Counted from the stretch's first letter, positions 2,857-59,548 are shown. The stretch is 64,000 nucleotides of DNA from an uncultured Acidobacteriota bacterium (GCA_963753035.1 CAVWAW010000009.1:2956-66955); one strand, 5' to 3'. Notes: a model not told the origin generated them from the sequence alone. Program-made: numbers and translations.

Positions 2857-3216
2857 GGGTTTTTGAAACACGAAGGTCACAAAGAACCACCAAGGCTGCC
2901 ACAAAGCACCTCGATTGAAAGTCGGACCTCGGTTCCGGAGCGACATTCGACTTCGTGGATCGGTTGATGTGACTTCAGCGGTTTGTTTGAAACGCAAAGA
3001 GCGCCATGAACGCAAAGGCCATCGCAAAAAACCCATTTCATACAACCATCGCATCGGATCTGCTGCGTTCAACCATTGATGAAACGCTGCGATGGTGCGA
3101 TGGGTCAAAATTGCGATGGCCTTTGCGATGTTCTTGGCGATCTTTGCGGTCTTTGCGGTAAAACTGCGATGCTTCGTGCAGCCCTTGGTGGTCCTTTTTG
3201 ATCTTCGTGTTTCAAA
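2857..3216. repeat. MITE-like element (family Rep-B): ~48-bp imperfect terminal inverted repeats around a core with tgcgatggtgcgatgg and ctttgcg repeats
   Basis: 2860-2910 (tttgaaacacgaaggtcacaaagaaccaccaaggctgccacaaagcac) is about 85% identical to the reverse complement of 3166-3216. The core 3088-3160 carries tgcgatggtgcgatgg plus cctttgcg/tctttgcg repeats seen at other loci. Confidence 0.6.
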
Positions 3217-11928: not shown

Positions 11929-11994
11929 TACAAATGGCACCCCGTTCGAGGCCAGATTTGCAGACCCTCGAAAGAACGCGGGATAGGGGCGTGC

Positions 11995-12220
11995 GGCGGG
12001 GTGCCGGGTCCGGCATTGTGCCGGCATCCCGTTCCGGTTCGCGTCACATTCCGCACAATGCCGTACCGGGCACCCTCGGGAGACGCCTCAAGGTCAATTC
12101 TCCCGGCTCAGAAGGAGGCCGCCGCTCGCGCAATCAGCGTGGTCGACTCCCTCCCCGCCACCACCGAACGACCGTGCTGATTGCGCGACGCTGGGTCGCC
12201 AAGGCGGTCCAGAAGGCCGG
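11995..12220 (+). repeat. Rep-A double-hairpin element, divergent copy 1 (inside the pyrG-kdsA spacer)
   Basis: Hairpin 1 pairs 12001-12024 with 12051-12073 (core cggcattgtgc/gcacaatgccg). Hairpin 2 pairs 12125-12145 with 12169-12189 (19 bp with two G-U pairs on this strand). The tail is cagaaggccgg. Confidence 0.75.
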
Positions 12221-12269
12221 TATCGATTGCCCCGTTGCGATACTCCTATCCAGATCGCGTAGGCGACGC

Positions 12270-30426: not shown

Positions 30427-31342
30427 CTGTGTCACAGGGGGCGCCGGTTTCATCGGCAGTCATGTTGCCGAAGCGCTGGTGCGCGACGGACACCAGGTTG
30501 TGATTCTGGACGACCTCTCCAGCGGCCGCAAGGAGAATATCCCCGAAGGCGCTGAACTCGTCATCGCGGACATCAGATCCGACAAGGCGGCGGGCGCCAT
30601 TGTCGATCGTGGGGTTGAGATTCTCATCCACCACGCGGCGCAGATGGATGTTCGGCGATCGGTGGCGGACCCGCGTTTCGACGCGGATGTCAACATCGGA
30701 GGGTTTCTCAATCTGCTGGAGGCCGCCCGAACCGGCTCAGTCAAACAGGTCATCTTCGCCTCCACCGGCGGCGCCATCTATGGCGAACAGGATGTTTTCC
30801 CCGCCGACGAAGGCCACGCCGTTCGACCGCTCTCGCCCTACGGTGTGTCCAAGCTCGCCAGCGAACGCTATCTCTTCTTTTACAACCAGCAGTACGGGCT
30901 CGATGTCACGTGCCTTCGGTACGCCAACATCTACGGCCCACGGCAGAGCCCGCACGGCGAGGCGGGGGTCGTCGCGATCTTTGCCCACAAGCTCCTGGCG
31001 AACGTCCAGCCCACCATCAACGGCGACGGAAAACAGAGCCGAGACTATGTCTATGTCGGCGATGTCGTCCGCGCCAATCTCGCGGTCCTCGGACTCCCAG
31101 GATTCCGGACCTTCAACATCGGCACCGGGGTCGAGACCGATGTCAACGAGCTCTTTGAACAGCTCCGCGCAGCCATCGGAACCGGCCCGCCGGCCGACCA
31201 CGGCCCGGCAAAGGCCGGCGAGCAGCTTCGATCGTGTATCACCTCAGGACTCATCGAGTCCGAACTGGGGCTGAGAATCGGAACCCCCTTCGATCAGGGG
31301 ATTCAGATCACCGCGGACTGGTTCAAAGCGCAGCAGGCGTAG
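30413..31342 (+). CDS. NAD-dependent epimerase/dehydratase (UDP-glucose 4-epimerase-like)
   Basis: GGAGFIGSH Rossmann motif and YGVSK (YxxxK) catalytic motif; 309 aa. Confidence 0.85.
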   Translation: MGSIICVTGGAGFIGSHVAEALVRDGHQVVILDDLSSGRKENIPEGAELVIADIRSDKAAGAIVDRGVEILIHHAAQMDVRRSVADPRFDADVNIGGFLNLLEAARTGSVKQVIFASTGGAIYGEQDVFPADEGHAVRPLSPYGVSKLASERYLFFYNQQYGLDVTCLRYANIYGPRQSPHGEAGVVAIFAHKLLANVQPTINGDGKQSRDYVYVGDVVRANLAVLGLPGFRTFNIGTGVETDVNELFEQLRAAIGTGPPADHGPAKAGEQLRSCITSGLIESELGLRIGTPFDQGIQITADWFKAQQA

Positions 31343-31532
31343 CAGCGGCAGCTGGGGCAGCAGCGGCCGGGAATCCCACCTAGCCCAACCGTCCCGCACT
31401 CTCTCGGAAACGCCCAACCGACTTCAACGTCTCTGACGGGCAGGCTGGAAGCCCGCCCCCACAATGCCCACCCACCCTGATCTGGTTCCGAAACCGAGGC
31501 CGACCAGAGCACGCGGAAAACCCCGCCCCCTC

Positions 31533-31771
31533 GGGGTGCCGGGTACGCCATTGTGCTGGAACCACCACCCGGCTCCGTCCCGCGCCCCGCACAATGGCGC
31601 TACCGGGCTCCCTCGGGAGGCACGATGCGGTCTGCTCTCCCGGCTACGAGGCAGGCCGCCGGCGTACCATCGGCGTGGTCGCAGCCCTCCCCGCCTCCCA
31701 CGCGCGACCACGCCGATGGTGCGACGCTGGGCCGCCGGGACGCCAAAGCGTCACGACGGCCCAGAAGGCCG
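31533..31771 (+). repeat. Rep-A double-hairpin element, copy 2
   Basis: Hairpin 1 pairs 31537-31560 with 31588-31611 (core cgccattgtgc/gcacaatggcg). Hairpin 2 pairs 31661-31682 with 31704-31725 (17 bp perfect, plus a U-G pair). The tail is cccagaaggccgg. Confidence 0.8.
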
Positions 31772-31987
31772 GCGTCAATAGAACCCCGTAGCCGTGACCG
31801 TTGCCGTTGCCGTGACCGCGGCCGGGAATCCCACCCAGCCCGACCGTCCCGCACTCTCTCGGATACGCCCAACCGACGTCAACCTCTCTGACGGGCAGGC
31901 GGGACGCCCGCCCCCACAATGCCCACCCACCCTGATCTGGTTCCGAAACCGAGGCCGACCAGAGCACGCGGAAAACCGCGCCCCATC

Positions 31988-32226
31988 GGGGTGCCGGGTA
32001 CGCCATTGTGCTGGAACCACCACCCGGCTCCGTCCCGCGCCCCGCACAATGGCGCTACCGGGCTCCCCCGGGGAGCTCGATGCGGTCTGCTCTCCCGGCT
32101 ACGAGGCAGGCCGCCGGCGTACCATCGGCGTGGTCGCAGCCCTCCCCGCCTCCCACGCGCGACCACGCCGATGGTGCGACGCTGGGGCGCCGGGACGCAT
32201 TGGCGTCACAGCGGCCCAGAAGGCCG
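31988..32226 (+). repeat. Rep-A double-hairpin element, copy 3
   Basis: Near-identical to copy 2; it is part of the second 455-bp unit. Confidence 0.8.
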
Positions 32227-32255
32227 GCGCTGAGGGCATGGCCCGGAACCACAGC

Positions 32256-32510
32256 AGCGCCCTTTGTTGCGCCCACGTCTCGGGGGCGATGAAACCAACC
32301 CGCGTCGGTACACCGCCATCGCCGGCGGGACGCTGGCGCTACAAACATCGCAGCGCCCTTTGTTGCGCCCACGTCTCGGGGGCGACGGAACCAACCCGCG
32401 TCGGTACACCACCATCGCCGGCGGGACGCCGGCGCTACAAACATCGCAGCACCCTTTGTGGCGCCCACGTCTCGGGGGCGATGAAACCAACCCGAATCGG
32501 CACTCCCCCG
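32256..32510 (+). repeat. 96-bp tandem repeat, about 2.7 copies, each with small GC hairpins
   Basis: cagcgccctttgttgcgcccacgtctcggggg...ggcgctacaaacatcg restarts at 32256, 32351 and 32447. It contains gccggcg gga cgccggc hairpins, one copy with a G-U pair on the + strand. Confidence 0.85.
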
Positions 32511-32823
32511 GGGAGCGCGATACGGTCTGCTGCTCCGGCCACGAAGCAGGCCGCCGACCGGACCCAATGGAAGGGCGCCAGGGTGAGGCAGGGAGATTTC
32601 AAACACAAAGGCCAATCCCGCGGGCGGGACGCCCGCACCACAACGGTCGCCATCTCCACCCGAATCCCACGCATGAACATGCGCTGCAAAATACTGCCGG
32701 GCTCATTCACAATGATTGCGTGAACGTTGAACGGACGGAGGTCCCCACTCTCGCGGCGACGGGACGTTGCCGGTGGCATCTTGCGCGAGGTACCTTGGAC
32801 CAACAACATGCTAGGAGGACGGT

Positions 32824-34176
32824 GTGAAGTCATTCATCGTGATTCTGATTCTGGCGCTCTGCATCCCGGTCGCGGCAATGGCCGAAGGCCCGGCGCAGCT
32901 CATCGGTTCCGTCGAGGCGGTCTACCACGAAGGTCTGGTGACCTTTCAGGTCGAGCACACCGACGCCGTCTCTAGTTCGATCAAGGTTTACGATCTCTCG
33001 ACCGATGCGCTCGTCTACGACAGCGGACCGCGAGCCCGGACTCTGGTGTCCTGGCCAGCCGGCCATGATTTGGTAGGCGCCTTCCGCTATGTGGTCACCG
33101 CATGGAACGAACGGGGCGAGGTCGTGGTCTCCCAGGCCGCCGTCACCAAGAACCTCACGCCGATCAGCAACATCACCTTTGACACCATCCCCGGCGACAC
33201 CAAGCTCCTCGGCCCCAACGAGGTCATCGTCGAGAGCGACCTTCAGGTTGGCGCTACCCAGGGGGTCCGTCTCGACCAGAATATCAACAGCCACGGAGGA
33301 GGCGCTTACTTCTACGAGGAGGACGGTTCGACCACTTACGCGTGGATGAATCCCGACTTCGACGGCCAGGGCGGTTTCTTTCACATCAAGGGTTCCGCGG
33401 CCTCGGGCGGCTACATTCAGGCTCAGGGCATGGATTCCCTGGCAGGCGCCCAGGCTTCCCTCCGCGTCGAGGGGACCTCGGACTTCGGCGTCTACGCCGG
33501 TCTCACCGGAACCGAATCGGTGGTCTTGCCGAGCAACGCGGTCTCCTCGTTCGAGATTGCGAACGAAGCGGGATTGGCATCCACCAGCACGCAGTCCGGC
33601 GTTGGACTGGAGGATACCCCGGTGAACGTGTTGGAACGCACCATCATCGTGCCGACCAACGGATATGTCTTGGCGATCGCGAACGCCGAAGGTCTGATGT
33701 ATCACGTCAACGGATCTGAGAGCCGCTACGTCTGCACGATCAGCGACACATCTCAAACACACGCTCTGGTTCAATCATCGGTCTTTTTGGCCCCCACACT
33801 TCCTTCTGGTGGCTACAATATCCCCGTGGCGGTCAGCCGCATCCTGCCGGTGACTTCCGGCGCTCACACCTTTTACCTCGTCTGCTCCGCGAACGATGTC
33901 ACCGGAGCCAACAACACGGGTGTTCGCGGTCGCCGGCTCGACCTTCTCTTCGTCCCCACCGCGTACGGAACGGTGACCGCACCACTCAAGGTCGTGGAGG
34001 GTCAAATGGAAGGTGTCGAGGACCACCTCCACTCGCCAACCGGGCTGAGCCAGGCGGAGATCGACGGCGAACGCGCCGAGTCCATCGCCTTCAACCTTGC
34101 ACGGATCCAGGCCGAGCTCGCCGAGCTCCAGGCCCAGGCCGACGCTCTCGCCGGCCCCGGGGGGAACCAACCCTAG
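32824..34176 (+). CDS. Secreted hypothetical protein with C-terminal coiled-coil-like tail
   Basis: GTG start 7 nt after aggagg. Signal peptide MKSFIVILILALCIPVAAMA. 450 aa with no recognised domain. The tail is ARIQAELAELQAQADALAG. Confidence 0.55.
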   Translation: MKSFIVILILALCIPVAAMAEGPAQLIGSVEAVYHEGLVTFQVEHTDAVSSSIKVYDLSTDALVYDSGPRARTLVSWPAGHDLVGAFRYVVTAWNERGEVVVSQAAVTKNLTPISNITFDTIPGDTKLLGPNEVIVESDLQVGATQGVRLDQNINSHGGGAYFYEEDGSTTYAWMNPDFDGQGGFFHIKGSAASGGYIQAQGMDSLAGAQASLRVEGTSDFGVYAGLTGTESVVLPSNAVSSFEIANEAGLASTSTQSGVGLEDTPVNVLERTIIVPTNGYVLAIANAEGLMYHVNGSESRYVCTISDTSQTHALVQSSVFLAPTLPSGGYNIPVAVSRILPVTSGAHTFYLVCSANDVTGANNTGVRGRRLDLLFVPTAYGTVTAPLKVVEGQMEGVEDHLHSPTGLSQAEIDGERAESIAFNLARIQAELAELQAQADALAGPGGNQP

Positions 34177-34477: not shown

Positions 34478-34575
34478 ATTGCGATGGCTTTGCGCCTCTT
34501 TGCGATGGATGATCTTCGCGCCCTTTGCGATTCAACCCTGCGATGGTGCGATGGATCTGCGTGATCTGCGGACAA
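34478..34575 (+). repeat. Rep-B family copy (gcgatgg / ctttgcg motifs)
   Basis: ttgcgatggctttgcgcctctttgcgatggatgatcttcgcgccctttgcgattcaaccctgcgatggtgcgatgg. Confidence 0.6.
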
Positions 34576-37224: not shown

Positions 37225-37230
37225 CGCGGT

Positions 37231-37265
37231 GATTGATGAATGATGAATGATGAATGATGAACATC
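37231..37265. repeat. AT-rich heptamer tandem array (gaatgat x4)
   Basis: gattgat gaatgat gaatgat gaatgat gaacatc, immediately after stop 37224. Confidence 0.8.
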
Positions 37266-37384: not shown

Positions 37385-37460
37385 CTGTCATGGTCCCTGT
37401 CCCTGCCGCGGTCCCTGTCGCTGTCGCTGTTCGCTGTCCCGGACGCTGATGCTGACCCTG
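37385..37460. repeat. GC-rich hexamer-periodic low-complexity array
   Basis: gtccct gtccct gccgcg gtccct gtcgct gtcgct gttcgct gtcccg gacgct ... Confidence 0.6.
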
Positions 37461-43157: not shown

Positions 43158-43340
<183 letters not shown>

Positions 43341-44126: not shown

Positions 44127-44301
44127 GGAACCGCAAAAACGCTGAGGTCGCAAAGATCCCGCAAAGCACTGCAATCATGAATTGGGCCATCGGATCGTGA
44201 GTGAATCAGGTCTTCGATGAGAGGTTGCGATGGTGCGATGGCTCAATCATGCGATGTCTCTGCGCCTTTGCGCCTTTGCGTCTTTGCGTCTTTGCGGTTC
44301 C
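44127..44301. repeat. Rep-B family palindromic copy
   Basis: The left arm ggaaccgcaaaaacgctgaggtcgcaaagatcccgcaaagc pairs with the right arm gcgcctttgcgcctttgcgtctttgcgtctttgcggttcc. The core is tgcgatggtgcgatggctcaatcatgcgatg. Confidence 0.7.
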
Positions 44302-52933: not shown

Positions 52934-52959
52934 TCCCCGGCCTTCTGGACCGCTGATTC

Positions 52960-53016
52960 TGTCGCGGTCGCGGTCGCTGTCCCTGTCGCTGCCACTGCCC
53001 CTGACGCTGTCCCTGA
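52960..53016. repeat. GC-rich hexamer-periodic array
   Basis: gtcgcg gtcgcg gtcgct gtccct gtcgct gccact gcccct gacgct gtccct. It is preceded by a 20-nt partial Rep-A start at 52937-52955. Confidence 0.7.
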
Positions 53017-53020
53017 TCCC

Positions 53021-53260
53021 CGGCCTTCTGGGCCGCTGTGACGCTATGGCGTCTCAGCGACCCAGCGTCGCACCATCGGCGTGGTCGATCGTGGGAAAGC
53101 AGGGAGGGCTGCGACCACGCCGATGGTACGCCGGCGGCCTGCTTCGTATCCGGGAGAGCAGACCGCATCGCCCTGCCCGAGGGAGCCCGGTATGACATTG
53201 TGCGGGGAGCGCCGCGAAACCGGGTGGTCGTTCAGGCACAATGTCAAACTCGGCACCCCG
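53021..53260 (-). repeat. Rep-A double-hairpin element, copy 4 (opposite orientation)
   Basis: On the + strand it starts with ccggccttctggg and ends with cggcacccc. Hairpin 2 arms are identical to copy 2 on the minus strand. The hairpin 1 core is tgacattgtgc/gcacaatgtca. Confidence 0.8.
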
Positions 53261-53323
53261 ATGAATCGCGATCTCCCGCGTGCCCTGACCTGCATTTGTC
53301 GCGGTCGCGGTCGTTGCCGCCAT

Positions 53324-54778: not shown

Positions 54779-56572
54779 TCAGGGAACCGTGCTCGACCAA
54801 GCCGAGGTGTTCCCGGTCTCGAAACCGTCGGCGAAGAGCCGCAACAAAGCCACGAAGAGTACGGCGTCGGAGGCGTCGCTGTCGCCGTTGAGGTCCGTCA
54901 TCCCCTGTTGCGACTCGTTCACCCGGAACGCGACGGTCGCCTCGGCCACCGCAATCGTCTCCGTCGCGAGCTCGAGGTTCGTAGTGACCCCGCTCGAGAA
55001 GTCGTGGAGATGCCCAATGTAGTCGAGAATGTCGCCGTCGCCGTTGAGGTCCGTCGTGTCTTGATCGCTCTCGCGGGTCCTGAACGCGAGCACCTGGTCA
55101 CTCATCGCAAGCACCCAGGTAGACCCACCAGAGGCGAGCCCGAGGTTGGTCGGGCCGCCGCCCGTGACTTCGTGGAGGAAGATCACGGCGTCGTCGGTGT
55201 CGGTATCGCCGTTCAGGTCCATGCCTTCCTCTTCCTCTCTGACCTGCACCGCAACCGTTCCGGCGGCGATGCCATGGCTGTAGGTGCTGGACGCTGACAC
55301 CAGATTCGATGTGGTTTGCGTGCTGTGATCGTAGAGGTGCAGCACCCAGTCGTCAGTGTCGGCATCGCCGTTCAGATCGGTGTTCCCTTGGTGTGACTCA
55401 ACAACGAGGAAGGCGACGTGTCCGTCGCCGACCGCGAGGCTGTACTGCGGACCCGCGAACCCGGTGTTGGTGAGCGTTGCCGCCGCGATGTCGTAAACCG
55501 CAAAGATCGCGTCGTTCAGGTCGGCGTCGCCGTTCCCATTCACACCCTGGCCGGCCTCCGAGTAGCGGAAGGCCACAAGGTCACCGTCAACCGCAAAGCT
55601 GTGCGTTCCGACATAGCTCGCCGAGGCGCACTCGTAGCCGACGTTGGCCTGGGCGGTGGTCGCGATGTCGTGAACGAAGAGCACATTGTCGATGAAATCC
55701 CCGTCACCGTTTAAGCTGGTCTGCCCCTGGGCGAACTCGTTCACGCGCACCACGGCTTTGCCGTCTTCGAGTTCAACCTCCGGGCTGCTCGAGTACGACG
55801 CGAGCTGCGTATTGGTCAGAATCTCGGTCGACACGTCATAAACATGCAGCACGAGATCGAAGGCGTCGCCGTCGCTGTTGAGATCCGAGTTGTTCTGATC
55901 AGCCTCATCGACAAAGAAGGCGGCGATTCCGCCCTCGGCATCGAATCGGTTGGCTGCGCTGATCTCCACGGCCAGGGCAAGGTTCGTAGTAACGAGGCTC
56001 TCCGCGTCGTAGACGTGCACCACCCAGTCGGTGGTGTCACCGTCAGCGTTGAGGTCGGTGGCGTTCTGCCACGCCTCCGACACTACCGCAACGGCGAGCG
56101 GGTCACTGACTTGCAGATCCCACTCCGAGACCGCCCGTCCGAGGTTGCTGGTGACATCGGTGCGGGCGTCGTACACATGCCAAATGGTATCGGTGGCGTC
56201 GCCGTCGTTGTTGAGATCGGTATTGCCCTGGTCTTCCTCCGATACCGCGAAGACCACCAGCGCACCATCAACGACGGGTCGCCCGCCGGCGAGGGCGAGA
56301 TTCCGAACCTGACCGCTCACCGGATCGAGCACGTGGATCACTTCGTCATCGATGTCTTGGTCGCCGTTGAGGCTCTGAGCACCCTGGTTTGCCTCGACCA
56401 CCTGGAATGCGACAAGGTCGGGGCTCGTCGCCACATCTGCGACCGCGTAGCCGGTGTTGGAGAGCGCGCGGTTGGCCAGGTTCACCGTCGCGGCGGGGGC
56501 AATTCGGCCGGTAAGCAGAATTGGGCCGAGCACCAGGGCCAGCATGCCGGAGCGTAGGACTGATTCCCGCAT
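54779..56572 (-). CDS. Secreted protein with about 10 repeats of about 55 aa carrying DLNGDGD calcium-binding-like loops
   Basis: It has a signal-like N-terminus. The repeat pattern is VAF.V.E..QG.TDLNGDGD..D.VLHVYD..T...TNL. It ends LFADGFETGNTSAWSSTVP. Confidence 0.6.
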   Translation of the reverse strand: MRESVLRSGMLALVLGPILLTGRIAPAATVNLANRALSNTGYAVADVATSPDLVAFQVVEANQGAQSLNGDQDIDDEVIHVLDPVSGQVRNLALAGGRPVVDGALVVFAVSEEDQGNTDLNNDGDATDTIWHVYDARTDVTSNLGRAVSEWDLQVSDPLAVAVVSEAWQNATDLNADGDTTDWVVHVYDAESLVTTNLALAVEISAANRFDAEGGIAAFFVDEADQNNSDLNSDGDAFDLVLHVYDVSTEILTNTQLASYSSSPEVELEDGKAVVRVNEFAQGQTSLNGDGDFIDNVLFVHDIATTAQANVGYECASASYVGTHSFAVDGDLVAFRYSEAGQGVNGNGDADLNDAIFAVYDIAAATLTNTGFAGPQYSLAVGDGHVAFLVVESHQGNTDLNGDADTDDWVLHLYDHSTQTTSNLVSASSTYSHGIAAGTVAVQVREEEEGMDLNGDTDTDDAVIFLHEVTGGGPTNLGLASGGSTWVLAMSDQVLAFRTRESDQDTTDLNGDGDILDYIGHLHDFSSGVTTNLELATETIAVAEATVAFRVNESQQGMTDLNGDSDASDAVLFVALLRLFADGFETGNTSAWSSTVP

Positions 56573-56745
56573 CGATTTTCCCCTGTTCTCTTGTAGGTCT
56601 GTTTGCCTGTGCCGGCATTCTCCGTTCCGTGGATTCCAATGTCAAGTCAGAGAGTGGTGTTGGAGGCGCCGAAACACTGTCGCTGTCTCGGTCGCTGTCG
56701 CTGTCCCGGCCCCGGTCGCGGTTCCGGATGCGGACTCTTTCGACA

Positions 56746-56972
56746 CCGGCCTTCTGGGCCGCTGTGACGCTTTGGCGTTCCAGAGGCCCAGCGTCGCACC
56801 ATCGGCGCGATCGCGCGGAGGTAACGGGGATAACTGCGACCACGCCGGCGGCCTGTTTCTTATCCGGGAGAGCAGACCGGATCGCCCTGCCCGAGGGAGC
56901 CCGGTATGACATTGTGCGGGGAGCGCCGCGATGCCGGGTGGTCGTTCCGGCACAATGTCAAACCCGGCACCC
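56746..56972 (-). repeat. Rep-A element, copy 5 (degenerate: 11-nt deletion in hairpin 2)
   Basis: It aligns to copy 4 but lacks gatggtacgcc after gcgaccacgcc. Confidence 0.7.
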
Positions 56973-57345
56973 CGATGGGCGTGGTTTTCCAGGTGACCTG
57001 GTCGGCTTCGGTTGATGATGGGTGTCATTTGGTGGTTGGGAGGCTCGTTGTTTGCCGCGGACTTTGGCCGGTACGGGTTGGGTGATCGCGAGTCCCGAGG
57101 GTCGTGGACCGGGATTTCGGGGATTCTGATCTTGGTGAGATTCCGATTACACAGGTGTTGCTTGGAAAAACCCTGGACCATATCGCGATGCAAACGAGAG
57201 CGGCGTTGGACTGGCGTGCGGCGCGACGCAGATCGACGAGGGCTCTGATGGGCCGGCGGGACGCCGGCCCTACAATCATCGCAATTGTGATCTCGGGTGG
57301 AGGAGGCGCCACGTGATGGCTCGGACTTCGTCGAAATCGACTACA
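56973..57345. repeat. Segmental-duplication module X, copy 1 (about 95% identical to 58590-58965), ending in a 3' remnant of the four-helix-bundle gene
   Basis: 57003-57345 aligns base-for-base with 58623-58965. On the minus strand it encodes only ...DFDEVRAITWRLLHPRSQLR*. Confidence 0.8.
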
Positions 57346-57409
57346 CGCCCATCCCTGAACGACCCGGAGGTGACCATGAACATCGGGGCCAGGAGGGCGC
57401 ATCGGTTGC

Positions 57410-57498
57410 TGGCCGCTGGTGACTGTCGCTGATTCCTGACGCTGTCCCGGTTCCGGACACGGTCGCTATTGCTGTCCCGGACGCGGTCGCGGATGAGG
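57410..57498. repeat. GC-rich hexamer-periodic array
   Basis: gactgtcgctgattcctgacgctgtcccggttccggacacggtcgctattgctgtcccggacgcggtcgcgg. Confidence 0.6.
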
Positions 57499-57522
57499 AC
57501 ACGGGATTCGGACATCGCGGAC

Positions 57523-57551
57523 TTGATACGGGCGTCCACGCGAGCTAAAAT
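57523..57551 (+). promoter_or_regulatory. Sigma70-like promoter TTGATA-N17-TAAAAT giving a leaderless transcript
   Basis: -35 box at 57523-57528, 17-nt spacer, -10 box at 57546-57551. ATG 57558 lies 7 nt downstream and no SD is present. Confidence 0.6.
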
Positions 57552-57557
57552 ATTCTC

Positions 57558-57728
57558 ATGAAGAGAGTTGTTCACAAGGCGCGGTCATTTGACGAAGCGG
57601 CGGATTGGGACATCAAGCAGCAGGTGTCGATGACGCCCCAGGAGCGAATCCGTGCTTCCCGTGAGCTGCAGAAGCGGGCGTACCCCGGCCCGCGGCAAGA
57701 CGTGCGCGAATGCCACCGGAAGTCGTAG
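57558..57728 (+). CDS. Small protein (56 aa), antitoxin-like partner of the downstream nucleotidyltransferase
   Basis: This ORF is not in the track (<60 aa): MKRVVHKARSFDEAADWDIKQQVSMTPQERIRASRELQKRAYPGPRQDVRECHRKS. It overlaps the next gene by 19 nt. Confidence 0.45.
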   Translation: MKRVVHKARSFDEAADWDIKQQVSMTPQERIRASRELQKRAYPGPRQDVRECHRKS

Positions 57729-58219
57729 AACCCGATTCGTTCTCCCCGGACGCTCGGGAGTTTCTTCGCCTGCTGAATGTCCACACGGTGCGGTTCATGA
57801 TCGTTGGAGGGGAGGCCGTGATCTTCTACGGCCATATCCGGCTCACCGGTGATGTCGATGTCTTCTTCGATCGAACTTCAACCAACGCCGAAAGGCTTTT
57901 CGAAGCACTCGAAGCATTCTGGCGGGGCGTGATTCCAGGGCTCCCTGGTCCCGCGGAACTCGAAAATCCGGGGATCGTCTTTCAATTCGGCGTTCCTCCG
58001 AATCGAATCGACCTCTTGAACGAGATCGATGGTATTGAGTTTGCCGCCGCATGGCCGCGCCGAACAGAGGTCGTGCTTGGCGAAGGGCCCGATCAAACTC
58101 GATATGCCTACATCGGTCTTGACGATCTCATTGAGAACAAGCGAGCCTCCGGCAGGCCGAAGGACCTTGGCGATCTTCCCTTTTTGCTGGAGGCGCGCCA
58201 AAGCCGGCTTATACGGTAG
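57710..58219 (+). CDS. Nucleotidyltransferase-fold protein (DUF2204/DUF6036-like, toxin-antitoxin-type)
   Basis: FMIVGGEAVIFYGHIRLTGDVDVF and LIENKRASGRPKDLGDLPFL fit the minimal-NTase TA-associated pattern. Confidence 0.6.
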   Translation: MPPEVVEPDSFSPDAREFLRLLNVHTVRFMIVGGEAVIFYGHIRLTGDVDVFFDRTSTNAERLFEALEAFWRGVIPGLPGPAELENPGIVFQFGVPPNRIDLLNEIDGIEFAAAWPRRTEVVLGEGPDQTRYAYIGLDDLIENKRASGRPKDLGDLPFLLEARQSRLIR

Positions 58220-58256
58220 TTCGCCAGCCGGTGCGCATCAAGACCACGTCTCAGCC

Positions 58257-58495
58257 CCGGCCTTCTGGGTCGCTGTGACGCTATGGCGTCCCAACGGCCC
58301 AGCGTCGCGCCATCGGCGTGGTCGCACGGAGGTAACGGGGATGGCTGCGACCACGCCCATGGCGCGCCGGCGGCCTGCCTCGTCGCCGGGAGAGCAGACC
58401 TCGAGGCGCTCCCCGAGGGAGCCCGGTATGACATTGTGCGGGGAGCGCCGCGATGCCGGGTGTTCGTTCAGGCACAATGTCAAACCCGGCACCCC
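58257..58495 (-). repeat. Rep-A double-hairpin element, copy 6
   Basis: It starts with ccggccttctggg. Hairpin 2 shows one compensated pair relative to copy 4 (cgcgcc/ggcgcg versus cgcacc/ggtacg). Confidence 0.75.
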
Positions 58496-58965
58496 CTTGG
58501 GGCGCGATCTCCCGCGTGCTAGCAACGCTTTGGGTGCCGCTGTCCCGGTCGCGGTCGCGATCGCGGACCCTGCCCTCATCACCGGCACCCCGAGGGGGTG
58601 CGGTATTCCGCGTGTCGTGAATCGGTTGCGGTTGATGATAGGTGTCGTTAAGTGGTTGGGAGGCTCGTTGTTTGCCGCGGACTTCGGCCAGGTACGGGTT
58701 GGGTGATCGCGAGTCCTGAGGGGCGTGGACCGGGATTTCGGGGATTCTGATCTTGGTGAGATTCCGATCACACAGGTGTTGCTTGGAAAAACCCTGGACC
58801 ATATCGCGATGCAAACGAGAGCGGCGTTGGACTGGCGTGCGGCGCGACGCGGATCGACGAGGGCTCTGATGGGCCGGCGGGACGCCGGCCCTACAATCAA
58901 TGCAATTGTGATCTCGGGTGGAGGAGTCGCCACGTGATGGCTCGGACTTCGTCGAAAAGGTGGAG
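58496..58965. repeat. Segmental-duplication module X, copy 2 (extends into the intact four-helix-bundle gene)
   Basis: See 56973-57345. It includes the hexamer array 58536-58576 and the hairpin gggccggcgggacgccggccc + tacaat at 58871-58897. Confidence 0.8.
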
Positions 58966-59259
58966 AGCTGAGTCGGTGCGGTTGACGTCGATTGCGCCGG
59001 ATCCCGCAAGAAGTCGTAGATGCGTATCGACCTCTTTCGCAGAGCCGTAGGCGATTCGCCAATGATGCATCCGGTCTCTTCCGCATCGGCCATGGCCTTC
59101 CGAGAGGTTTGCAGGTACTGACGACGCTGATCGAATCACCTGATCGGCGATACTTTTCAGTGGAGCCGGAACCCGCATCGCCAGGGCAATTGCGATGCCG
59201 GCGGCTTCGAGGGCCTTGCGGTGAGCGATGAGGCCGGTTTCTGTTCGGGCGTTGCGCAT
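58897..59259 (-). CDS. Four-helix-bundle protein (23S rRNA intervening-sequence protein / Avd-like family)
   Basis: QVIRSASSVPANLSEGHGR and AYGSAKEVDTHLRLL. ATG 59259 lies 5 nt after aggagg. Confidence 0.7.
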   Translation of the reverse strand: MRNARTETGLIAHRKALEAAGIAIALAMRVPAPLKSIADQVIRSASSVPANLSEGHGRCGRDRMHHWRIAYGSAKEVDTHLRLLAGSGAIDVNRTDSALHLFDEVRAITWRLLHPRSQLH

Positions 59260-59415
59260 GATCACCTCCTGGTTGTTCATGCCCTCCCACCAGCCGCTGA
59301 GATGGCCGATGTCAAGGGTCGCCTCCGAGGCGACTTGTCTTGCCCTTGACATCGGCCATCTCAGCGGCTACCCGTGTCTTCAAGAACAACCAGGAGTGAA
59401 CATGCTGCCCCGGTA

Positions 59416-59548
59416 GCTGACGCGGTCGTTGCCGCTGTCGCCGTCTGGCCCCTGTCCCGGTCGCTGTTGCTGGCCCTGCCGCTGCCTTCTGGCGCTGGTT
59501 CCTGGCGCTGGCCCTGCCGCTGATTGCTGCCGCTGTCGCTGTCGCGGA
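59416..59548. repeat. GC-rich hexamer/trimer-periodic array directly downstream of the cox operon
   Basis: gctgacgcggtcgttgccgctgtcgccgtc...ctggccctgccgctgcc...gccgctgtcgctgtcgcgg. Confidence 0.6.

Follow-up and report, generated by a model that had tools for sequence, protein, structure and literature searches.

Here we describe Rep-A, a repeat with six full copies in a 64,000-nucleotide (nt) stretch of DNA from an uncultured Acidobacteriota bacterium (GCA_963753035.1, CAVWAW010000009.1:2956-66955; hereafter the window), whose copies diverge in sequence yet keep a common fold on one strand, and which is a well-supported candidate for a new structured RNA family. At roughly even confidence, we read Rep-A as a lineage-specific, multi-copy structured non-coding module that acts as a single strand, most likely as RNA and not as single-stranded DNA (ssDNA), within a mosaic and probably selfish system of cassettes. 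These cassettes center on IVP, our label for a protein of ~125 amino acids (aa) of the PF05635/TIGR02436 type ("23S rRNA intervening sequence protein", S23p). The original prediction, made from the window's sequence by itself, had described a shorter repeat and overlooked the larger modular element, its extreme abundance and its coupling to an Avd/S23p-like gene.

Under this interpretation, a cassette would run from a microsatellite through a 150-nt 5′ hairpin and the IVP gene to Rep-A, and an IVP-linked Rep-A would be transcribed in the same direction as IVP and make up the 3′ portion of its transcript. Most copies are solo, as tandem arrays or module fragments. Spread would proceed by duplication, deletion and recombination between flanking microsatellites or modules, not by cut-and-paste transposition, and Rep-A would be kept under selection even when solo.

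Copies, fold and strand polarity of Rep-A

Repeat search and MAFFT alignment placed the six copies where the original prediction had them and in the same orientations, three per strand, while each copy proved longer than described. Using a covariance model built from these copies (R1; 268 positions, 84 pairs), we found that they start ~25 nt further 5′ and score 203-283 bits (E 1e-44 to 1e-62). The window contains six full copies of ~268 nt, with a mean column identity of 80%, and two fragments (Table 1). The earlier label of a double hairpin has to be replaced by four to five helices over ~268-295 nt: a small hairpin on the 5′ side, then hairpin 1, which is long and bulged, a short hairpin in the middle, and lastly hairpins 2 and 3 within an outer helix. 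All three reported versions of the hairpin 1 core (cgccattgtgc/gcacaatggcg, cggcattgtgc/gcacaatgccg and tgacattgtgc/gcacaatgtca) are present and yield two covarying pairs, 41-94 and 43-92. In hairpin 2, copy 1 had been said to differ from copies 2-4 at four positions, each compensated; these are pairs 161-218, 162-217, 164-215 and 168-211, of which three are indeed fully compensated and one is a change from U-G to C-G. The further compensated pair reported for copy 6 is also found in the alignment, as is the loss of part of one hairpin 2 arm in copy 5. Folded alone, copy 4 reaches -143.4 kcal/mol (z = -4.9 against dinucleotide shuffles).

An exact-pattern scan of 185,579 species genomes matched at least 68 loci, and among the matches listed nearly all loci belong to three uncultured Acidobacteriota metagenome-assembled genomes (MAGs) and one Thermoanaerobaculales MAG, with ~40 loci in one MAG alone. 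The MAGs named for Rep-A are CAWGLT01, CAVQJV01 and CAVPHA01; in 540 kb from the three Acidobacteriota MAGs and the Thermoanaerobaculales MAG, the covariance model detected ~120 copies that are complete or almost so, along with numerous fragments. The number of copies per genome is at least in the tens and probably in the hundreds. None of the fetched MAG loci (L numbers below) overlaps the window, which therefore derives from another, related genome, and across the window and these loci Rep-A is strictly intergenic. Metagenome DNA of unrelated bacteria (339 kb) gave no covariance model match at E <= 1, and no Rep-A match was found in phage and plasmid collections (blastn) or viral contigs (pattern scan). 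As the original prediction held, Rep-A fits no known Rfam family: Rfam 15 gave no match to the whole window at gathering thresholds, and searches in E-value mode (window 31300-32900 and 56500-59500; L020 3600-4700) returned only far-sub-threshold matches to eukaryotic miRNA and snoRNA hairpins. A search of the window for tRNA and tmRNA genes found none.

The larger collection allowed the compensatory changes seen in six copies to be followed over 89 full copies, in which 93.1% of 7372 pair cells are canonical, as opposed to 37-49% in a control with the 3′ partners slid by 1-3 columns. Double changes occur at 30 pairs, the observed values were reached by 0 of 500 shuffles, and single positions hold up to five pair types (e.g., AU 36, CG 28, GC 18, UG 4 and UA 2). 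Because the 89-copy alignment had been fitted to the structure, the test was repeated structure-blind on a MAFFT alignment. By mutual information corrected for the average product, the top four column pairs are consecutive antiparallel pairs of hairpin 1, three of them 96-99% canonical, and pairs of hairpins 2 and 3 rank next.

The proposal that selection acts on a single-stranded fold of defined polarity, first made from G-U pairs that all lay on the same strand, is supported on this sample by the covariation, by the G-U asymmetry and by the energy of the sense strand. Pair cells with G-U or U-G outnumber those with A-C or C-A by 518 to 117, cell counts that overstate the number of independent events because the copies are related by descent. 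G-U makes up ~7% of pair cells, while A-C is almost absent from the well-supported helices, and the A-C-rich pairs belong to doubtful helices and helix ends. In every one of the 89 copies, the conserved fold has its lower energy on the sense strand (mean -123 kcal/mol, versus -110 kcal/mol for the antisense strand), in a comparison that favors the sense strand because the consensus structure was derived on it. Copies are oriented at random with respect to flanking genes (47/36 upstream, 48/46 downstream), which makes a mutational strand bias from host transcription an unlikely source of the polarity.

Focusing on solo copies, we compared three orthologous pairs from MAGs whose coding flanks are 77-92% identical. 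Between L031 and L062, 27 of 100 unpaired positions have changed as against 12 of 168 paired ones, five of these twelve being GC/GU changes; for L012 and L049 the counts are 22 of 99 and 22 of 168, with many GC/GU changes and one UA-to-CG double change; and for L020 and L050 they are 4 of 101 and 1 of 168. Solo copies are 92.9% paired and gene-linked copies 94.7%. Solo Rep-A copies are constrained in place, and their divergence preserves the structure.

These data bear directly on the view of Rep-A as an ordinary miniature inverted-repeat transposable element (MITE), or a neutral palindromic DNA repeat whose stems are kept through youth, which is largely refuted and which we regard as very improbable. 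Abundance, intergenic location and a mosaic arrangement with other repeats are what such an element would display, but the copies are old (~79% pairwise identity) and still 93% paired, several pair types occur per position, differences between orthologous copies fall mostly in loops or are GC/GU exchanges, and a palindrome acting as double-stranded DNA would lack the asymmetry between G-U and A-C. Neither terminal inverted repeats (TIRs) nor, at any boundary offset, target-site duplications (TSDs) mark its ends. In a TSD scan with offsets of 0-59 nt per side and k = 4-8, at most 8-11 of 87 copies agreed (controls, 2-6), and those that did trace to the microsatellites of tandem arrays, so the TSDs by which an ordinary MITE would have been recognized were not found. 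Likewise, when the start and the end of the consensus of 96 copies are read (GGNCACGCGG... and ...CCCAGAAGGCCGG), neither is an inverted copy of the other, although no dedicated TIR scan was made; the 3′ end of Rep-A pairs internally with the base of hairpin 2.

Association of Rep-A with IVP genes

The only multi-copy open reading frame (ORF) near Rep-A encodes IVP: all-against-all clustering of 2195 ORFs from 69 sequences (~600 kb around copies) otherwise returned only housekeeping paralogues and translated repeats, and no autonomous transposon with ends matching Rep-A was found there. The IVP gene of the window encodes a four-helix-bundle protein for which the AlphaFold model has a pLDDT of 89; the best Foldseek matches of this model are the S23p pentamers 2GSC and 2RLD, and it also matches the Avd structures 4DWL and 8UB7 (TM 0.69-0.82). 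Purifying selection acts on the IVP paralogues, for which the ratio of nonsynonymous to synonymous substitution rates (dN/dS) has a median of 0.19. The protein has 3954 matches in metagenomes, the best 120 of which are all 77-89% identical, and 1536 clusters of a 50%-identity library are related to it.

In loci anchored on Rep-A, 16 of 16 IVP genes or gene fragments are followed by Rep-A in the same orientation, at a distance of 15-450 nt, and half of them also have Rep-A upstream. Four loci retain only the 3′ end of IVP beside Rep-A (L059, L065, L066 and, in the window, a remnant of 19 codons at 57279-57335 found by tblastn, which with a D-module precedes copy 5). The association also appears when loci are picked by the protein and not by Rep-A. 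Among seven such independent loci, four (L070, L074, L155 and L157) have a full Rep-A 0-11 nt after the IVP stop codon and L156 has the hairpin 1 domain only. In most cases, an IVP-linked Rep-A begins 0-35 nt past the stop codon.

At the other end of the gene, a hairpin precedes every IVP gene, in the window and in 17 further cassettes (e.g., L017 2316-2462, L074 3876-4024 and L161 1378-1524). Its outer stem pairs CATGATCACCTCCTGGTTGTTC with GAACAACCAGGAGGTGATCATG, the latter being the start codon plus the first seven IVP codons, and encloses an inner stem of 28 bp and, at the apex, a small hairpin. Double changes occur at 19 of 54 hairpin pairs in the 18 cassettes, and the coding 3′ arm covaries with the 5′ arm, giving IVP the N-terminus MNNQEVIM, MNNPEVTM or MNDPEVTM. 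In contrast to Rep-A, this hairpin consists almost wholly of Watson-Crick pairs and has no excess of G-U (7 variable G-U versus 13 A-C); it could act as DNA or as strictly double-stranded RNA, for example as an RNase III site, for which the 28-bp stem of the Coxiella intervening sequence offers a comparison (PMC4990558).

Two roles may be envisaged for the Rep-A RNA. In diversity-generating retroelements (DGRs; 10.1101/2023.10.23.563531), Avd binds the RNA whose coding sequence directly follows avd, and by this analogy Rep-A could plausibly be a ligand of IVP, which would be pentameric and bind nucleic acid. Alternatively, it may be a 3′ structure with a part in protection or processing, RNase III being one example.

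The same likeness to DGRs raises the quite improbable alternative that Rep-A and IVP form a DGR-related, retroelement-like parasite served in trans by a reverse transcriptase, with solo and 5′-truncated copies as retro-copies. The fold predicted for IVP resembles Avd (4DWL, 8UB7; TM 0.7-0.8), and an Avd-like gene directly before a structured non-coding sequence of ~270 nt on the same strand mirrors the avd, template repeat (TR) and Spacer RNA order of the DGR core (10.1101/2023.10.23.563531), in which TR plus Spacer also measure ~270 nt; the loci with nothing but the 3′ end of IVP beside Rep-A and the G-rich 12-mer arrays flanking the cassettes would also fit. However, we found no reverse transcriptase near any of ~25 cassettes examined and no such domain among the called genes around ten IVP loci, and no copy resembling a variable-repeat target was seen in a coding gene, leaving no pair of template and variable repeats. 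Adenines do not stand out in variability (0.27 for consensus A at unpaired positions, with 0.33 for U, 0.18 for C and 0.17 for G), many fragments are truncated at the 3′ end, which premature termination of reverse transcription would not produce, and tandem arrays include the spacer. A genome carries tens to hundreds of Rep-A copies, whereas DGRs number one or few.

Several observations weigh against our preferred reading of a single-stranded module within an IVP cassette system, in addition to the bias of the energy comparison and the relatedness of copies given above. Unconstrained minimum free energies do not differ between sense and antisense strands, which only the conserved fold's energy tells apart. 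The high identity of L020 and L050 (95-100% in Rep-A, with 88-92% in coding flanks and 42-52% in the adjoining spacer) could reflect gene conversion instead of selection. Scans around the copies for sigma-70-like promoters and intrinsic terminators gave none assignable to Rep-A or IVP. Approximately 85% of Rep-A copies have no IVP gene nearby, and two of the protein-picked loci (L069 and L158) have a different 3′ module, so that the link is frequent and not obligatory. In a more G+C-rich lineage, IVP homologues of ~40-50% identity keep the 5′ hairpin and microsatellite flanks without Rep-A, and the protein therefore does not need Rep-A RNA in general. By the same token, the conserved core consists of the hairpin and IVP, to which Rep-A has been added in a lineage-specific way; other local repeats flank these homologues.

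L159 (1501-2246), which comes from a more distant lineage, has a tail-to-tail pair of IVP genes separated by just 54 nt, a gap that holds nothing like Rep-A.

Mosaic organization and spread

Rep-A behaves as a recombining mosaic and not as an end-defined mobile element. Neighboring copies lie on the same strand in 42 cases and on opposite strands in one. Tandem units measure 296-506 nt with the spacer included, partial copies end at the internal module borders 113, 155, 100-127, 168 and 197, many fragments are truncated at the 3′ end and hold positions 1-113 or 1-155 only, and one subfamily carries an insertion of 100-125 nt at position 113. Fragments with internal borders and tandem units that include the spacer point to recombination, not to end-defined transposition. 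Orthologous spacers differ in copy number, with 1910 nt in L017 versus 377 nt in L067, and L003 and L024 differ in orientation.

Within the window, copies 2 and 3 are parts of a 455-nt tandem unit with 95-96% identity (Tandem Repeats Finder, TRF, span 31363-32229). The partial copy that follows corresponds to the middle module, model positions ~101-155 (nhmmer, 32503-32557), and the remnant near copy 6 reads as consistent with an internal deletion between GCCGG repeats. The spacer between pyrG and kdsA (flanking genes identified by Pfam) contains copy 1, which is antisense to the two genes. A metagenome scan anchored on KdsA for an empty site reached a nearest relative of 83% aa identity, in which the pyrG-kdsA spacer is different and unalignable.

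The flanks of Rep-A hold hexamer and 12-mer microsatellites, for example (GCGACC)n and (GGGGCAGCGACC)n, and other repeat modules, and arrays of the same types border Rep-A and IVP cassettes at other loci. At 37391-37454 of the window, a spacer without Rep-A holds a (GTCCCT/GTCGCT)n microsatellite of this flank type, so such arrays also occur alone. Among the other modules, the U-module lies upstream of approximately half of all copies and contains a degenerate 3′ arm of hairpin 1 (CCCCCACAATGCCC), the two D-modules are direct repeats of 90-97% identity, and the 96-nt repeat module is also found beside Rep-A in L002, L005, L010 and L040.

Table 1. Rep-A copies, the IVP cassette and associated repeat modules in the window (R1, covariance model of the six copies)
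Feature	Position	Strand	Remarks
Rep-A copy 1	11972-12223	+	R1 203 bits; most divergent, without hairpin 3 tip
Rep-A copy 2	31507-31775	+	R1 273 bits; unit 1 of 455-nt tandem
Rep-A copy 3	31962-32230	+	R1 272 bits; unit 2 of 455-nt tandem
Rep-A copy 4	53017-53285	-	R1 283 bits; between convergent genes
Rep-A copy 5	56743-56998	-	R1 244 bits; 12-column deletion in 5′ arm of hairpin 2
Rep-A copy 6	58254-58521	-	R1 277 bits; 375 nt downstream of IVP gene, same strand
Rep-A remnant	58582-58619	-	First ~38 nt (cacgacacgcggaataccgcaccccctcggggtgccgg) fused to 3′-flank microsatellite, as read in the sequence
Weak partial Rep-A	32452-32578	+	R1 23.9 bits, E 2.6e-4; end of 96-nt tandem array
IVP gene	58897-59280	-	127 aa, S23p/Avd-like four-helix bundle; PF05635 E 3e-14, TIGR02436 E 6e-15
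5′ hairpin, ~150 nt	59257-59404	-	Outer stem catgttcactcctggttgttc with gaacaaccaggaggtgatcatg, start codon included
D-module, ~335 nt	58622-58957	-	IVP stop to copy 6; opens with GGGCCGGCG..GCCGGCCC hairpin
Second D-module and last 19 IVP codons	57002-57336	-	Upstream of copy 5
U-module	31363-31506	+	Precedes copy 2; second instance at 31818-31961, ahead of copy 3
96-nt tandem repeat	32247-32534	+	~2.5-3 units, directly after copy 3
Hexamer/12-mer microsatellite (CTGTCGCTGTCC)n	52959-53020		Abuts copy 4; TRF
Similar microsatellite array	56677-56727		Copy 5; TRF
Similar microsatellite array	31786-31824		Copy 2; TRF

Unlikely, though by no means far-fetched, is the alternative that Rep-A is a non-autonomous ssDNA element, resembling the palindrome-associated transposable elements (PATEs) derived from IS200/IS605 or the REPINs, and served by a Y1/HUH TnpA or a REP-associated tyrosine transposase (RAYT) encoded elsewhere. 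Like those elements, Rep-A has strand-specific hairpins in which G-T pairs are tolerated, lacks TSDs and TIRs, is strictly intergenic and reaches very high copy numbers, and its clustered copies share an orientation. The folding strand is also weakly biased to the C-rich strand of the flanking DNA (38 of 56 loci, p = 0.003), a GC-skew bias on which we do not rely, since it runs opposite to the lagging-template prediction for IS608-type elements and is confounded by gene content and overlapping loci. On the other hand, no TnpA was seen among the fetched loci, nor any Y1/HUH-like or other multi-copy transposase ORF in the ~600 kb around copies, and Rep-A, with four to five helices and conserved junctions, is far longer and more complex than REPs or IS605 ends and has a far more complex internal architecture than PATEs or REPINs. 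A PATE would have subterminal hairpins at both ends and a fixed target 5′ of its left end. Flanks that were read and aligned show no conserved target motif of 4-5 nt, although no position-specific statistic was computed, and they are heterogeneous, consisting of a stop codon, a microsatellite or a U-module. The modular fragmentation at internal borders and the spacer-containing tandem units likewise differ from what such an element would leave, and a G-U share of ~7% of pair cells is more typical of RNA.

Relation to known systems and other repeats

In kind, Rep-A is an interspersed mosaic repeat, and it matches no described RNA or repeat family tested. Repetitive extragenic palindromic sequences (REPs) are short imperfect palindromes of 20-40 nt that occur in mosaic intergenic clusters with a cognate RAYT. 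With REPs and bacterial interspersed mosaic elements (BIMEs) of E. coli, and with the ERIC, RIME, NIME and Correia families, Rep-A shares its intergenic location, high repetition, palindromic modules in mosaics or tandem clusters, an orientation independent of flanking genes and the lack of an internal transposase. It differs from them in size (~270 nt, four to five helices), compensatory covariation, single-strand polarity and coupling to IVP, and it shares no sequence or Rfam model with them. No RAYT was seen near Rep-A copies among the fetched loci, and the initial statement that the repeat is of no known REP type agrees with this and with its long, multi-helix unit.

Other identities were rejected. 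An integron attC site is a single imperfect palindrome of 57-141 nt with R and L boxes, standing after each ORF in an integrase-linked array, whereas Rep-A has ~270 nt and several hairpins, is dispersed over many contigs and spacers and has no integrase in its loci; the motif GTTRRRY was not seen on reading the consensus ends, although no pattern search was made. A CRISPR-like array was rejected as the spacers are duplicated along with the repeats, a type III toxin-antitoxin system as the repeats upstream of the gene are 6-12-nt microsatellites only, and a retron on anatomy.

Among known elements with PF05635 proteins, the intervening sequences (IVSs) of 23S rRNA in Leptospira and Coxiella resemble the cassettes in combining such a protein with near-perfect stems of ~28 bp of the kind cut by RNase III, and they are held to be selfish elements of unknown origin and mobility (PMC4990558). 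The cassettes described here occur instead in ordinary intergenic spacers between protein genes and in many copies, and Rfam detected no rRNA in the window. The ORF is not enclosed by their long stem, a hairpin that lies entirely on its 5′ side, described IVSs have no counterpart of Rep-A, and the Coxiella ORF is reported to be decaying (PMC4990558), in contrast to the dN/dS of 0.19 for IVP. A bolder reading, which we consider distinctly unlikely, is that hairpin, IVP and Rep-A make up a selfish protein-RNA element in which an Avd-like pentamer binds the downstream RNA and the pair propagates, and that the S23p-encoding IVSs of rRNA derive from such cassettes. Propagation would then pass, for example, through an RNA intermediate with a reverse transcriptase in trans, or through hairpin- or microsatellite-guided recombination. 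If true, the cassettes would be free-living relatives ancestral to the S23p-encoding IVSs of 23S rRNA.

Through gene association, the S23p/Avd family gains two conserved nucleic-acid partners, a 5′ hairpin kept at ~40-50% protein identity and the lineage-specific Rep-A, and ~120 Rep-A copies are already available for the seed alignment of an RNA family. Standalone S23p/Avd-like proteins are very widespread and, to our knowledge, have no known function outside DGRs, and the origin and mobility of the S23p-encoding intervening sequences of 23S rRNA have been an open question since the early 1990s. In the literature searched, we found no report of a coupling of Rep-A to standalone Avd/S23p genes or of their conserved 5′ hairpin.

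Further repeats were noted in these genomes. Module E (GGCTGTCGCTACACAA..AGAACGGCC..TGTGTAGCGACAGGCTTCCAGCC) is a ~75-nt repeat with a hairpin, absent from the window and present at L017 1471-1545 and 3229-3303 and at L070 3700-3790; in L017, it brackets the entire Rep-A/IVP composite as direct repeats. Short tandem arrays on TTTGCGATG / TGCGCCTT, at 3111-3159, 34483-34531 and 44256-44296 of the window, L024 2730-2830 and L158 3010-3100, look like one more family of dispersed intergenic repeats. Perfect heptamer arrays, (GAATGAT)x4.4 at 43158-43188 and its reverse complement (ATTCATC)x4.4 at 43309-43339, are inverted around ~120 nt that hold the hairpin GGTGGGCCTGGGCCCACC+TTCAGA, a motif that also follows the IVP stop codon in L069, and a related (TGAATGA)x4.6 array lies at 37230-37261 of the window.

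Within the repeat island around copies 5 and 6, a DUF6036 nucleotidyltransferase-like ORF (57710-58219, + strand; Pfam E 1.5e-6) stands between the two D-module/Rep-A units on the opposite strand, with a sigma-70-like promoter predicted nearby at 57523-57551, and may be a small insert of toxin-antitoxin type. A 597-aa ORF at 54779-56572 without a Pfam match contains a six-fold internal repeat of ~73 nt (54844-56239, - strand; 60-74% identical) and is probably a repeat-domain protein.

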